The notes below the pieces were generated by a model, which was given only the letters and a program-made list of their open reading frames with translations, did no database searches and was not told where the DNA came from. DNA of 64,000 nt. It comes from Spirochaetota bacterium (GTDB lineage Bacteria; Spirochaetota; Spirochaetia; Treponematales; UBA12059). A program made the position numbers and the translations under genes. This document shows, piece by piece, positions 20,919-63,160 of the stretch (positions are counted from its first letter, which is position 1; each line of letters opens with the position of its first letter). The stretch is from NCBI GenBank assembly GCA_003247225.1, contig QKAK01000028.1:7289-71288 (forward strand), given 5' to 3'.

Positions 20919-21121
20919 GGGGCGTCCGTTGGGCGCCGCTGCCGCTCGTAGGCCCGAGCGGATCCCGGAACCGGACGTGATTGTTAGCTATGAAGAGCGT
21001 GACATGATCGACATGATACGGCCCGGCCTCCCGATGCTCATTTTCGGAAGTCGGTCGCCCTATGCCTGATTCTTGCTTTTTCTCCCTCTCGCCTCATATG
21101 CTCGTATCCTCTTCGTCGCCT

Positions 21122-22051
21122 TCACTCAGCATCCCTGATCAGCGTCCAGGTCAGTTCGTGCTTGTTGTGCCAGAGGTGCGTCACGCGGGAGCCGGGTATA
21201 GCGGCGAAGCGGGCGACCGTCTGGCGGTCCCACTCGGCGCCCTGCATCTTGATCGTGCAGACGAAGTTGCGCGCCAGGCCCGAGTCGAGCCACAGCGACA
21301 CCCAGTCGTACAGGGCCGGCGGGTAGCAGATCACGTCGGAGCAGAACCAGTCGACCGGGCCGATGTCCTCGGGCTTGATCGTGAACGCGTTATGCTTGAT
21401 GAAGCTGACGCCGGGCATCGCGGCGACGCGGTCGTCGATCGGCGCGCGGTCTATGGCGACGACCTCGGCGCCGAGGCCGGCGAGGGCCCAGGTCCAGCCT
21501 CCGGGGCAGGCGCCCGCGTCGACGCAGCGCCGTCCGGGGCCCGGCATCGCTCCGGCCGAGACGAGGGCCTCCCATAGCTTGCGGTAGGCGCGGCTCGGCG
21601 GGCCCTCCCTGTCCTCGGCGAAGTCGAGGCGGCCGTTCGGCCACGGGCTCGAGCAGGCGGCCGATGCGAGCAGGGTATGCTCGTCGAGCAGCGTGAACGC
21701 GCCCATCGGCGCGTTCGGCGCCGAGAACGGGAAGGCCTTGGGCTTGGACGGCAGCGGCGGCAGGGCGGCGGCTATCAGCTCGCCTCGCCTGGCGTTGCGG
21801 GTCGGGTAGTGGGCCCAGTTGCGCTGCATGCCCTTGAGGAGGCGGGCCGCGTCCGAGATCGAGCCGAATTCGGCGGTGAACGGCTCCTTCCAGACGTTCC
21901 TCGTCCAGTAGGCCGTCCGTTCCTCGCCCATGACGGTCAGGAGGTCGCCGTCGCGGCGATACGGTTCGGGCAGCTCGCCTTCGAGATGGGCCATGAATCC
22001 GGGCGCCGCGTGGTAGCAGGCGGCGTCTAGGCGCTTAATCGTATCGCTCAT
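21122..22051 (-). CDS. rlmM: 23S rRNA 2'-O-ribose C2498 methyltransferase RlmM-like (FtsJ fold)
   Basis: PSRAYRKLWEAL, SAM motif DAGACPGGWTWAL, WFCSDVICYP. It has an ATGA overlap with the upstream 973-aa gene. Confidence 0.7.
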   Translation of the reverse strand: MSDTIKRLDAACYHAAPGFMAHLEGELPEPYRRDGDLLTVMGEERTAYWTRNVWKEPFTAEFGSISDAARLLKGMQRNWAHYPTRNARRGELIAAALPPLPSKPKAFPFSAPNAPMGAFTLLDEHTLLASAACSSPWPNGRLDFAEDREGPPSRAYRKLWEALVSAGAMPGPGRRCVDAGACPGGWTWALAGLGAEVVAIDRAPIDDRVAAMPGVSFIKHNAFTIKPEDIGPVDWFCSDVICYPPALYDWVSLWLDSGLARNFVCTIKMQGAEWDRQTVARFAAIPGSRVTHLWHNKHELTWTLIRDAE

Positions 22052-29357: not shown

Positions 29358-30191
29358 TTATTCGCCGATCTTGAATATCGCGCCGTACGGGTCCCACGGC
29401 TCCGACCGGGGCGACGCGCCTTCGATCGCATCCGGATCGAGCTCCAGGTGCTCGATGATCCATTCGCCGTCGTCTCCGGGGGCGATGATGGCCAGCCCGA
29501 CGATGGCCCGGGAGCCGCTATCGTCGGCGAAGGCGCGGAACCGGACGCTGGCGACCGGTCCGGGCCCGACGACCGGCGTCGCGAAGCGTACCCGGGCGAA
29601 CCGCAGCGGGAACGCGTCGCCGAATCGGGCCCGAGCCAGGGCGGCCGCCTCCGGTCCCATCGACCCGTACGGCGGCTCGCCCGATAGGAGGCCGCGCTCC
29701 AGCTCGAGCATGGCCTCGTCGCGAGCGGCGTCGGCCGGCTCGCCAGAGCCGGGGCCGTAGAGCTCGCCGAGCTCGAAATCGCCGGCCGGCGCCGCGTCGA
29801 AGGGCCGCTCGACGAGGCGGCGGTCGCTACCGGCCAGGCTCGCCGAGACGACCGCCTTGACGGCCTTCGCGCCCGTCCCGGCGGCCGGCGAGGCCTTGGG
29901 CGACGCCTTCATCGCTACCGGCTTGTCTGCGGGCTCGGCGCGCGCGGCGTCGGCGCGCGCGGCGTCGGCGCGTACGGCGTCGTCGCCGGGCTCGGGCTCG
30001 GCGCGCGCAGCGTCGTCGCGCGCAGCGTCGTCGCGCGCGACTGCGGCGCTAGCCTCGGCGCCGACGGCCGCCTCGGCCGGCGCTCGATCCGGCCGCTCGC
30101 GGCTCCTCGAGCAGGCCTGGGCGGAGACGGCGGCCGCCAGTACGATGGCGGCGATCATAATGCCGTATAGTCGAGATCGGCTCGCTTGCAT
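29358..30191 (-). CDS. putative lipoprotein with acidic Ala/Asp/Arg repeats
   Basis: Signal peptide MQASRSRLYGIMIAAIVLAAAVSAQAC, with a Cys after the hydrophobic core. Repeats DDAARDDAAR and ADAARADAAR. Confidence 0.5.
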   Translation of the reverse strand: MQASRSRLYGIMIAAIVLAAAVSAQACSRSRERPDRAPAEAAVGAEASAAVARDDAARDDAARAEPEPGDDAVRADAARADAARAEPADKPVAMKASPKASPAAGTGAKAVKAVVSASLAGSDRRLVERPFDAAPAGDFELGELYGPGSGEPADAARDEAMLELERGLLSGEPPYGSMGPEAAALARARFGDAFPLRFARVRFATPVVGPGPVASVRFRAFADDSGSRAIVGLAIIAPGDDGEWIIEHLELDPDAIEGASPRSEPWDPYGAIFKIGE

Positions 30192-48832: not shown

Positions 48833-50241
48833 CCGAGGATTTCGAGACCTTCACCCCCCGACGGGTCGTCGAGGAGCTGGACCGCTACATCATCGGGCAG
48901 GACAAGGCCAAGCGGGCCGTCGCCATAGCCCTGCGCAACCGCCTGCGGCGCAAGCTGCTGCCCGAGGCGGCCCGCGAGGAGATAGCCCCGAAGAACATCC
49001 TGATGATAGGCCCCACCGGCGTCGGCAAGACCGAGATAGCCAGGCGGCTGGCCAGGCTGTGCGGCGCTCCCTTCGTCAAGGTCGAGGCGACCAAGTACAC
49101 CGAGGTCGGCTACGTCGGCCGCGACGTCGAGTCCATGATACGCGACCTGATGGCCGCCGGCTACCGCATGGTCGTCGAGGAGATGACGGCCAAGGTCAGG
49201 GAGGACGCCGAGCGCCACGCCGAGGAGCGCCTGCTCGACCTGCTGCTGCCGGGGATAGGCCAGAAGCCCGTCGCCCCGGCGGCCCAGGCCGCCCCCAAGC
49301 CCGAGACCTGGGCGACCCCGGTCGCCGAGCCCCAGGCGGCGCTGCCCGCCCCGAAGGGCGCCGACACCCGCGAGAAGTTCCGCGCGATGCTGCGCGACGG
49401 CCTCCTCGACGACAAGGAGGTCGAGGTCCAGGTCTCCGCCCAGGCGGCGCCGCCGATCGAGCTGTTCGCCGGGCAGCAGATGGAGGAGCTCGAGTCGGCG
49501 TTTTCGGGCATCGCGAACATCTTCGGCGGCAAGAAGAAGAAGAAGACGGTCACCGTCAAGGAAGCCAGGCGCGTCATCCTCGAGGAGGAGCAGGACCGGC
49601 TCGTCGACAAGGACCGGGCCTCGGCCGAGGCCCGCGAGCGCGTCGAGCAGTCGGGCATCGTGTTCATCGACGAGATAGACAAGATAGCCACCCGCGAGGG
49701 GCGCTCGGGCGGCGGCATGGACGTCTCGCGCGAGGGCGTGCAGCGGGACATCCTGCCGATCGTCGAGGGCTCTAAGGTCAGCACCAAGTACGGGGTCGTC
49801 GACACGACCCATATCCTGTTCATCGCGGCCGGGGCGTTCAACGTGTCCAAGCCGTCCGACCTGATCCCCGAGCTGCAGGGGCGCTTCCCTATACGGGTGG
49901 AGCTCGAGGCGCTGTCGGCGTCCGACTTCGTGCGCATCCTGACCGAGCCCGAGAACGCCCTCGTCACGCAGTACACCCAGCTGCTCGGCACCGAGGGCGT
50001 GGGCCTGAGCTTCTCCCCCGCGGCCGTCGAGCGCCTCGCGGCGATAGCGGAGAAGGCGAACGCGCGCACCGAGAACATCGGGGCCAGGCGGCTGCACACG
50101 ATCATGGAGCGCCTGCTCGAGGAGCTGTCCTTCGAGGCGCCGGAGCGCGGCGGCGACTCGGTGGAGATAAGCGAGGCCTTCGTCGAGGAACGCTTCGAGG
50201 GCGTCTTCGAGAGCGAGGACCTCGCGAAGTTCATACTCTAG
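48829..50241 (+). CDS. hslU: ATP-dependent protease ATPase subunit HslU
   Basis: GTG start overlapping the hslV stop (GTGA). [47 protein letters not shown]. Confidence 0.95.
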
Positions 50242-50259
50242 GCGAAGTGAAATAGGTAA

Positions 50260-50418
50260 TTGAACCACGGAGACGCGGAGGCACGGAGTAGAATGAATAC
50301 GAAGGAGAATTTGAACCACGGAGTCACGGAGTAGGAGAACAAAGATGGATTGTATGATGGAATCCCATTCTCCACCTTCCTCGTCTTCATTCTCCGTGCC
50401 TTCGTGTCTCCGTGGTGA
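50260..50418. repeat. palindromic CACGGAGN-repeat element, copy 1 (hslU-flgB spacer)
   Basis: The left arm CCACGGAGACGCGGAGGCACGGAG (50265..50288) is the near-perfect reverse complement of the right arm CTCCGTGCCTTCGTGTCTCCGTGG (50392..50415). An extra half copy TTGAACCACGGAGTCACGGAGTAGGA lies at 50311..50336. Confidence 0.8.
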
Positions 50419-50426
50419 AAAAGCGT

Positions 50427-50453
50427 ATAAGCCCTGACGATATTGGCCGATAA
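50427..50453 (+). promoter_or_regulatory. sigma28 (FliA)-type promoter upstream of flgB
   Basis: ATAA (50427..50430), 15 nt, GCCGATAA (50446..50453). The -10 is an exact match to the TAAA-N15-GCCGATAA consensus. It lies 47 nt before the flgB ATG. Confidence 0.5.
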
Positions 50454-50500
50454 GAGAAGGTGAGGGCTCCCGGCGAACGGGGGCCAACGGAGGTGGATCG

Positions 50501-50920
50501 ATGCTCGAGAATACGACGTTCGGCAGGACGGTGGAGCTGTTGCAGCGCAGCATGGACGTGGCGTCCCTGCGCCACGAGGTCATAGGCAACAACATCGCCA
50601 ACGCCGAGGTGCCGAATTTCAAGCGATCGGAGATCAACTTCGAGTCGTCGCTGAAGCGGGCGATAGACTCCGAGAAGCGCGAGCCGAGGCTGCAGCTGGC
50701 GACCACGGAACCGGGCCACATCGCTTCGTGGAAGCGGGCCGACTGGCGCGACGTCGAACCGCGCAGGGTGCTCGACTACCTGTCGACGACCAAGAACAAC
50801 GGCAACAACGTCGACGCCGAGCAGGAGTTCATGGACTCGATGACGAACCAGCTGCGCTACACGCTGATGACCCAGGCCGCCGCGTTCGAATTCAACCAGG
50901 TCAACCAGGTCCTGAAATGA
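50501..50920 (+). CDS. flgB: flagellar basal-body rod protein FlgB
   Basis: RHEVIGNNIANAEVPNFKR and the C-terminal MTNQLRYTLMTQ pattern. Confidence 0.9.
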   Translation: MLENTTFGRTVELLQRSMDVASLRHEVIGNNIANAEVPNFKRSEINFESSLKRAIDSEKREPRLQLATTEPGHIASWKRADWRDVEPRRVLDYLSTTKNNGNNVDAEQEFMDSMTNQLRYTLMTQAAAFEFNQVNQVLK

Positions 50921-50948
50921 TAGCGGATTTGACGAACAGAGACGCAGA

Positions 50949-51041
50949 CCACGGAGGCACGAAGGCACGGAGTAGGAAAGGCCTGTCCCGTTTTTCCTTT
51001 CCTGCCTCTCCCTTATTCTCCGTGTCTCCGTGTCTCCGTGG
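50949..51041. repeat. palindromic CACGGAGN-repeat element, copy 2 (flgB-flgC spacer)
   Basis: The left arm CCACGGAGGCACGAAGGCACGGAG (50949..50972) pairs with the right arm CTCCGTGTCTCCGTGTCTCCGTGG (51018..51041). There is an inner hairpin AGGAAAGG / CCTTTCCT. Confidence 0.8.
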
Positions 51042-51068
51042 CGAAGCATTCTTACAGGGGGCTTTCTG

Positions 51069-51527
51069 ATGGGAATGTTCACGAGCATCAATATAGCGGC
51101 GAGCGGGATGACGGCGGAGCGGCTGCGCCAGGACGTCATCGCCGACAATATCGCTAACCAGTCGACGACCCGCACGCCCGAGGGCGGCGTGTTCAGGCGC
51201 AGCCGCGTGGTGCTGCGGCCGAAGACGGATACGCCGTACTTCAGGCTGCCGTTCCTGCCGGACCAGTGGGACGGCGGCGCCGGCCAGGGCGTGCGCGTGT
51301 CGGAGATCCAGAAGGACTACGCCGCCGAGACCAGGCTCGTCTACGATCCGACCCACCCGGACGCGATCAAGGCGGGGCCGCGGGCCGGCTACGTCGAGTA
51401 CCCGAACGTCAACGTGGTCACCGAGATGGTCGACCTGATATCCGCGTCGCGCGCCTACGAGGCGAACGCGGCGATAGCCAACGGCGCCAAGGCCATGTTC
51501 ATGAAGGCCTTGGAGATAGGACGGTAG
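51069..51527 (+). CDS. flgC: flagellar basal-body rod protein FlgC
   Basis: Internal ATG of ORF 51030..51527. MGMFTSINIAASGMTAERLRQDVIADNIAN; C-terminal MVDLISASRAYEANA. Confidence 0.9.
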   Translation: MGMFTSINIAASGMTAERLRQDVIADNIANQSTTRTPEGGVFRRSRVVLRPKTDTPYFRLPFLPDQWDGGAGQGVRVSEIQKDYAAETRLVYDPTHPDAIKAGPRAGYVEYPNVNVVTEMVDLISASRAYEANAAIANGAKAMFMKALEIGR

Positions 51528-62428: not shown

Positions 62429-63160
62429 ATGGCGCGCAAGAAGAAAGAGGCCGCCCTCGGCGGCACCGGAGAATGGATCGTCACCTATAGCGACATGGTC
62501 ACGCTGCTCCTGTGCTTCTTCGTGGCCCTCTTCGATACGACCGAGGTGGACGTGGTCCAGCTCAACCAGATGATATCCAGCCTGAACAACATAGGCATGG
62601 GCGCGTCGACCGGCGGCAATACCCTGTCGGTAGGGCGCATGGCCGAGCTCGGGAACTCCATCAACAGCCTGCCGTCGATGGAGAAGGGCAAGATGCTCGC
62701 TACGGCCAAGAAGAAGGCCGTGTCGCTGTTCCAGCCTGAGATCAAGTCGAACAAGGTCAGGGTCAGCTCCGACGAGCGCGGCATCGTCATATCCCTCGCC
62801 TCCGACGCGTTCTTCAAGCCCGCGAGCGCCGACATCAACATCGACGAGACCCGATCGATGCTCGTCAGGCTGTCCGAGCTGCTCAAGTCGGACGAGCTCG
62901 AGGGGCGCAAGTTCAGGATCGAGGGCCATACCGACTCGTCGCCGACCGACCCGACGGGGCCGTGGCAGTCGAACTGGGAATTATCGGCGGCGAGGGCGCT
63001 CGGCGTGCTACACTACCTGAGCGACTTCGGGGTGCCGGAGGCGCGTTTCCAGGTGTCCGGCCTCGCGGCCACGATGCCGATAGCCGACGACTCGACCGCC
63101 GAGGGGCGGGCGTACAATAGGCGCGTCGATATTATAATACTGGACGAGGGCCATCTGTGA
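62429..63160 (+). CDS. motB: flagellar stator protein MotB
   Basis: WIVTYSDMVTLLLCFF contains the plug/TM with the conserved Asp. The C-terminal OmpA-like domain reads GHTDSSP...NWELSAARA...NRRVDIIIL. Confidence 0.9.
   Translation: MARKKKEAALGGTGEWIVTYSDMVTLLLCFFVALFDTTEVDVVQLNQMISSLNNIGMGASTGGNTLSVGRMAELGNSINSLPSMEKGKMLATAKKKAVSLFQPEIKSNKVRVSSDERGIVISLASDAFFKPASADINIDETRSMLVRLSELLKSDELEGRKFRIEGHTDSSPTDPTGPWQSNWELSAARALGVLHYLSDFGVPEARFQVSGLAATMPIADDSTAEGRAYNRRVDIIILDEGHL

Follow-up and report, generated by a model that had tools for sequence, protein, structure and literature searches.

The stretch of DNA analysed here (the window; 64,000 nt, 67.7% G+C) carries hslU, flgB, flgC, fliE and fliF around the hairpin under study, all of them on the plus strand. 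By the source names of its closest FlgB homologues, the organism belongs to Spirochaetota. Between flgB (50501-50920; Pfam Flg_bb_rod) and flgC (51069-51527 with its ATG at 51069; Flg_bb_rod plus Flg_bbr_C) there is a gap of 148 nt, most of which is taken up by a 93-nt hairpin at 50949-51041. Its 5' arm (50949-50972; CCACGGAGGCACGAAGGCACGGAG; 24 nt) consists of a leading C followed by the tandem octamers CACGGAGG and CACGAAGG and by CACGGAG, and it pairs with a 3' arm of likewise 24 nt (51018-51041; CTCCGTGTCTCCGTGTCTCCGTGG), which is made of the CTCCGTGN octamer three times in tandem. Arm complementarity scored 88%, with 21 Watson-Crick pairs, 2 G-T pairs and 1 A-C mismatch on the plus strand. 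The 24-nt arms enclose a 45-nt loop, and we confirm the inner 10-bp stem of the preliminary description (50972-50981 / 50996-51005), which is again purine-rich and then pyrimidine-rich, closes a 14-nt loop and is followed on the 3' side by an unpaired pyrimidine-rich bulge (51006-51017). As RNA, the hairpin folds at a minimum free energy of -54.4 kcal/mol as compared with -32.2 +/- 3.5 in 200 dinucleotide shuffles (z = -6.4). The 5' arm starts 28 nt past the flgB stop codon (23 nt if the extended stem is counted), and from the end of the 3' arm to the flgC ATG we measure the same 27 nt as reported before. The Shine-Dalgarno-like AGGGGG of flgC (51056-51061, plus strand) lies outside the hairpin and 14 nt past the 3' arm, a trivial change from the 13 nt given earlier. 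The flgC ribosome-binding site is predicted to be modestly less accessible with a hairpin (0.33-0.43) than at empty flgB-flgC junctions of relatives (0.52-0.59).

A larger hairpin of the same family (copy 1; 50260-50421, plus strand) lies between hslU and the flgB promoter and begins 23 nt past the hslU stop codon. Its arms (50265-50288 / 50392-50415) are part of an extended pairing (50264-50305 / 50375-50416), and it holds an additional half 5' arm (50311-50331). Direct identity between copy 1 and the flgB-flgC copy amounts to 89% over 28 nt and 82% over 45 nt; the claim that the hairpin inside the operon is a second copy of the copy 1 family thus holds. That the two flank flgB in the same orientation is correct in so far as they are direct repeats, yet for a palindrome 'orientation' is nearly meaningless. 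When the three-octamer motif was scanned with up to three mismatches, the four arms of these two copies were the sole matches in 64 kb, where 0.01 would be expected, and this confirms the hairpin observation; the heptamer CACGGAG by itself shows no enrichment (16 in the window versus 14 expected). The outer ends read TTGAACC ... GGTGAA in copy 1 and GACC ... GGCGAA in the flgB-flgC copy, as compared with a family consensus of (T)TCACC ... GGTGA(A) that is itself variable. Unpaired extra half 5' arms inside or just upstream of complete hairpins were seen at window 50311-50331 and at about 2940-2975 of contig L137, which suggests nested insertion or slippage of the octamer array. Elsewhere in the window (29936-30061), there is a block of GC-rich overlapping direct and inverted repeats (CGCGCGCGGCGTCGGCG ...) with 41-nt arms of 73% complementarity, unrelated to the octamer family.

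Ten further contigs have a FlgB protein identical to the window's, and at ~97% nucleotide identity they are colinear with the window over 20 kb (all 11 strain contigs were fetched via FlgB). Between L122 and the window, colinearity is broken only at the two hairpin spacers, namely an upstream block (50245-50443) and the flgB-flgC spacer (50919-51068), both given on the plus strand; the latter begins with the final two bases of the flgB stop codon, reaches up to the start of flgC and hence includes the flgC Shine-Dalgarno-like sequence. Each spacer occurs as two alleles of near-equal length and unrelated sequence which are swapped as a block. The A type is the window's CACGGAG hairpin and the B type a different hairpin, also with a purine-rich and then a pyrimidine-rich arm; between A and B there is weak residual similarity (z about 3.6 in composition-preserving shuffles). 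All four spacer combinations (A/A, A/B, B/A, B/B) were found, independent of which of two SNP backbones flgB and flgC have. At the flgB-flgC spacer, the A allele is identical across both backbones and the B alleles are only 87% identical, hence we read A as the younger allele; this suggests that it was spread by recombination. The upstream block carries an A-type or a B-type hairpin depending on the strain, and in two NCBI MAG assemblies (L123 5157-5256, L124 9844-9943) it appears as 100 N, probably an assembly gap or masking due to the palindrome or to strain heterogeneity. Just 3' of this block is a sigma-28 (FliA)-type -10-like box, GCCGATAA (50446-50453, plus strand), ~50 nt 5' of the flgB ATG and with a TAAG/TAAC-like -35 ~15 nt further up. 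The box occurs once on the plus strand of the window and once on the minus strand (at 62981); it or its variant GCCGATA was found in L122, L131, L133, L258, L260, L135, L137 and L262 and is missing in L264. At window 21076-21118, a 42-nt stretch agrees at 33 positions with the B-type 3' arm from the flgB-flgC spacer, with the next-best window site scoring about half as high. Read on the minus strand it would correspond to a purine-rich 5' arm lying a few nt past the stop codon of an ORF (21122-22051), and by its sequence it resembles a decayed B-type copy at a third location.

Eight further lineages, with FlgB proteins 88% to 67% identical to the window's, were compared at the same junction. 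Four of them (L131, L135, L262, L264) have empty flgB-flgC junctions of 9, 11, 25 and 11 nt, in line with the earlier statement that the two genes are nearly adjacent as a rule, and in two of the four a GAGG-type Shine-Dalgarno sequence follows directly on the stop codon. Filled junctions of 143-207 nt with a hairpin were found in L258, L133, L260 and L137 as well as in the window's species; the four filled relatives comprise one B-type orthologue (in a species with FlgB 84% identical to the window's), two hairpins of the CACAGAG/CACGGAG type and one independent CACGGAG hairpin with an extra half arm. The lineage with FlgB closest to the window's (88%) has an empty junction. The hairpin that the preliminary description saw is real, whereas the two alleles within the species and the turnover of the junction between lineages had escaped it. 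None of the relatives showed the flgB-flgC spacer as a coding sequence, a finding which that description had named as speaking against a hairpin element.

Outside the spirochaetes, the arm motif is widespread. Scanning CCACGGAGNCNCGNAGNCACGGAG on both strands of one genome per species (596 Gb) returned at least 120 genome stretches, where by our estimate 20 fixed bases should match about once by chance. Judged from record titles, the matches listed include Acidobacteriota, Planctomycetota, Verrucomicrobiota, Lentisphaerae, Kiritimatiellia and Chloroflexota and further Nitrospirota, Myxococcota, Geobacter, Sumerlaeia, Ignavibacteriae and Spirochaetota, about 12 groups in all. The motif is also present in 39 IMG/VR viral contigs and on one RefSeq plasmid, pTs485 of Candidatus Thiodictyon syntrophicum (NZ_CP020372.1); a phage collection gave no match to it. 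On pTs485 (L257 2430-2710), nested octamer hairpins with TCTCTCACGGAG termini fill a 296-nt gap between genes annotated as anti-phage-associated, DUF499 and DUF3780, and the RefSeq annotation has no feature beneath the match. The data are MAGs and metagenomes, and gene contexts rest on crude ORF calls. Pairing of arms yielded 100 elements, mostly of 54-260 bp, with 76 arms having no recognisable partner. The purine-rich arm always comes first in the paired elements, 94 of which are shorter than 380 bp and cargo-less, like the window copy. Where a solo hairpin lies between genes running the same way, it begins 8-22 nt past the upstream stop codon in 22 of 25 cases. Direct repeats abutting the palindrome were no more frequent than in a shuffled control (93 elements), so there is no sign of target-site duplication, and an Rfam gathering scan of ten canonical loci from other phyla returned nothing. 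Among solo hairpins, selection for an RNA stem showed as no more than a weak 13:7 trend. One 8-kb locus (L084) contains three hairpins, one solo arm and one cassette of the kind described below.

This kind of cassette links the arms to a gene. Four elements of 428-575 bp have a 124-aa ORF exactly between their arms, which matches TIGR04256 (GxxExxY) and PF13366 (PDDEXK_3) at E about 1e-43 to 1e-45, and these four are the sole GxxExxY genes in ~1.3 Mb of loci examined. Taking the 80 independent metagenome loci that best match a profile of the four CACGGAG-flanked GxxExxY proteins, we found at least two sense octamers upstream together with at least two antisense octamers downstream in 65, as compared with 2 in the inverted control. 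The cassette arms are three tandem CRCNRAG-N octamers, usually preceded by TTCACC, and the best inverted repeats use CACGGAG, CACAGAG, CGCAGAG, CGCGGAG, CGCCGAG or CACAAAG. Octamer type is shared with the nearest protein relative in 35 of 76 cases (22% expected by chance). Cassettes are oriented like their upstream gene in 43 of 47 and like their downstream gene in 46 of 50 cases, and in 40 of 43 the upstream stop codon precedes the first octamer by 3-36 nt. In 63 cassettes, arm mismatches that wobble in the sense RNA (96) are as common as those that wobble in the antisense (100), and with G-U mismatches equal on both strands the arms look DNA-level rather than like a selected RNA stem. No recurrent cargo besides GxxExxY emerged when the 217 ORFs adjoining arms were clustered. 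A larger autonomous element, considered on account of arm pairs 1-3 kb apart, was dropped since these proved to be separate elements or ordinary genes. While the assignment of the window hairpin as a second copy stands, the preliminary description did not see that its motif is spread across phyla and normally frames a GxxExxY gene.

The GxxExxY protein had no sequence match in the PDB, and its AlphaFold model (pLDDT 64) found nothing below E = 0.6 when compared with the PDB by Foldseek. The GxxExxY / PDDEXK_3 family comprises at least 8000 clusters. A superfamily survey in 2012 listed the function of PDDEXK_3 as 'unknown' and noted multiple transfers between divisions (PMC3424549); in the myRT paper, 'GxxExxY' is an annotation label only. 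Octamer hairpins mislead gene callers, giving rise to spurious ORFs and to N-terminal extensions such as HHGDTE. The latter would be added to the GxxExxY protein of L030 by an upstream in-frame ATG and read through the 5' arm, and ORFs through octamer arms in other loci give the peptides HHGGTEARR and SVPPCLRGE. GxxExxY proteins may often come with N-terminal extensions such as HRGHRG, of which L030 is the one illustration here. In L261 (1372-1509), a 45-aa gene has been called inside a B-type flgB-flgC hairpin spacer.

How, then, is the flgB-flgC hairpin to be explained? That it might be a chance palindrome or an assembly artefact may be thought of because the data are MAGs and the upstream spacer is N-masked in two assemblies, but the folding score (z = -6.4), the four motif arms in place of 0.01 and the presence of the identical 148-nt spacer in five further independent assemblies (L121, L123, L124, L127, L129) leave this with a practically negligible probability; the last point alone tells us that the window hairpin did not arise in assembly. 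Intrinsic termination, or attenuation as raised in the preliminary description, would fit a very stable hairpin between two genes of an operon, yet the stem is not followed by a T-run on either strand, and a consensus scan found neither a terminator nor a sigma-70 promoter at the site. As there is no promoter-like site downstream of the hairpin, flgC to fliF and beyond rely on read-through, and termination or attenuation strikes us as very improbable. A repeat of the REP/BIME type, moved by a RAYT (Y1 HUH) transposase, would account for an intergenic palindrome just past stop codons that lacks target-site duplication, and REP-like families are known from PVC phyla and Chloroflexi (PMC3733652). 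REPs, though, are single units of 20-40 nt with a GTAG or CGTC head, often species-specific and linked to a Y1 transposase (PMC3733652). The arms here are three tandem octamers with a sequence common to many phyla, and the gene found between such arms belongs to the PD-(D/E)XK family; the window arms begin with CCACGGAG, and GTAG occurs solely inside the hairpin, past the third octamer. An origin of this kind therefore seems improbable. Readings of the octamer as a CsrA site or as an SD/anti-SD sequence were dropped because its GGA motifs are base-paired and the framed gene would be left unexplained.

More weight is due to the option that the hairpin is a selected cis-acting RNA element, an RNase III site or 3'-end stabiliser that sets levels of flgB against those of flgC-fliE-fliF and which either descends from the repeat family or has converged on it. 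A hairpin occupies the flgB-flgC junction in five of nine related lineages, and its stem length should be sufficient for RNase III. Moreover, the B-type orthologues of two species have arms 87% and 74% identical and a loop 46% identical, as compared with third codon positions that are 47% (flgB) and 55% (flgC) identical, so the arms are conserved above the synonymous level and the loop is at the neutral level. In six of the nine spirochaete copies, the sense strand folds 8-18 kcal/mol better than the antisense strand. These data hint at host-level or RNA-level constraint beyond that on a neutral insertion, but homogenisation by other copies, recent transfer or a mutation bias linked to transcription could explain them, too. 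Against an RNA element, the hairpin is missing in four lineages, including the one with the closest FlgB, and is replaced by unrelated sequence within one species. No compensatory pairs were seen among the orthologous B-type copies, which comprise too few distinct sequences for covariation, and the window's own copy folds no better in the sense than in the antisense direction. Finally, the family adjoins unrelated genes in a dozen phyla where its arms are without strand asymmetry. On balance, we think it unlikely that the hairpin is a selected RNA element.

Instead, we assign the flgB-flgC hairpin, at a probability of roughly 60%, to a palindromic DNA family that crosses phyla, as a MITE-like member without cargo. 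This is based on the window copy having the family's octamer arms, their purine-first order and a position between co-directional genes, yet no cargo. It is small and non-coding with terminal inverted repeats, and filled as well as empty flgB-flgC sites exist among related genomes, both as in MITEs; the target-site duplication typical of these is absent. The hairpin is thus a swappable insertion rather than a fixed or conserved flagellar control element. The spacers were probably exchanged by homologous recombination via the conserved flanking genes, with the CACGGAG allele presumably the more recent. As a cargo-less insertion, the hairpin would carry arms that act as terminal repeats at the DNA level and are probably sites for protein binding, not an RNA structure maintained by compensatory change. 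Transcribed within the flgB operon, the copy would form a hairpin of roughly 34 bp, which should not terminate transcription as it has no U-tract, and flgC has a Shine-Dalgarno sequence of its own. Its likeliest effect may be REP-like: the hairpin could stall 3' exonucleases and/or serve as an RNase III site that weakens the coupling of flgB to flgC, and such an effect would be tolerated and perhaps mildly useful but not required. The arms may be mobilised by the GxxExxY protein, and the hairpin may derive from a cassette, or else cassettes may have come about by insertion of the gene into hairpins. Because there is no target-site duplication and the 64-kb window contains just two copies, with neither an autonomous copy nor a GxxExxY gene anywhere, we infer mobility in this genome rather than observe it.

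One may go further and envisage that octamer-armed hairpins and GxxExxY cassettes together make up an undescribed class of mobile elements. According to this tentative scenario, the small PD-(D/E)XK protein would recognise its own inverted arms by their tandem 8-bp repeats and move the unit, without target duplication, into the spacer directly past a host stop codon, and there the unit would ride on host transcription. Gene-less derivatives, among them the two around flgB, would be long-lived and exchanged between strains, and the spirochaete clade might have co-opted them as mRNA hairpins of the flagellar operon. Taken with all of these details, the scenario is possible, albeit rather doubtful to our minds. 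For the flagellar genes, the preferred reading of a cargo-less insertion means that any effect on gene dosage would come from an insert that can be exchanged, at a junction which changes between lineages, and would be strain-specific and outside conserved flagellar regulation. More generally, the arm motif ties the intergenic hairpins of soil and sludge bacteria, which number in the thousands, lack annotation and span about a dozen phyla, to the GxxExxY / PDDEXK_3 family and, as a third element, to a regular insertion position behind stop codons. This linkage yields a testable hypothesis for the function of these proteins as well as for the origin of the hairpins.

As for precedents, double-octamer strings of the common types are absent from the searchable, non-subscription literature, concept searches returned REP/RAYT work alone, and we could not find a description of a palindromic insert family with octamer arms. 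An Rfam 15 gathering scan of the whole window, which covered flagellar-associated motifs as well, passed tRNAs alone, and a permissive scan of 50150-51150 gave only sub-threshold microRNA-precursor look-alikes at the hairpin (at most 26 bits versus 60-100). Like the RAYT-associated REP/BIME elements of Enterobacteria and Pseudomonas, the octamer family consists of short intergenic palindromes past stop codons, often within operons and without target-site duplication; unlike them, it has tandem-octamer arms, an arm sequence that crosses phyla and a PD-(D/E)XK gene inside. Once transcribed, the malE-malF REP blocks 3' exonucleases, and by analogy a REP-like mode of action is likely for the window hairpin. 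Bacterial MITEs such as Chunjie (Geobacter uraniireducens) and Correia/NEMIS (Neisseria), whose transcripts in the case of Correia are RNase III substrates, are similarly small and non-coding, have terminal inverted repeats, form hairpins and are tolerated inside operons. They do, however, make target-site duplications and have DDE-transposase partners, whereas the octamer family lacks such duplications and has a 124-aa protein of nuclease fold as its candidate partner. In 23S rRNA intervening sequences, a small ORF in the loop is transcribed together with its host gene, and RNase III cleaves the stem. The octamer cassette is likewise a small ORF looped out by a long inverted-repeat stem, but cassettes are found between protein-coding genes and not inside rRNA. 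Rickettsia palindromic elements, confined to one genus and without an associated gene, can sit in frame within coding genes. An octamer hairpin in L084 (4843-4956; 114 nt, i.e. 38 codons, no stop codon) resembles them in that a methyltransferase-like ORF of 1247 aa seems to read through it in frame, with the hairpin just past the GxGxF motif of the ORF, although in sequence the two families are unrelated. What sets the octamer family apart from other intergenic palindromic repeats is the combination of arms built as octamer arrays, an arm sequence shared across phyla and a PD-(D/E)XK gene framed by these arms.
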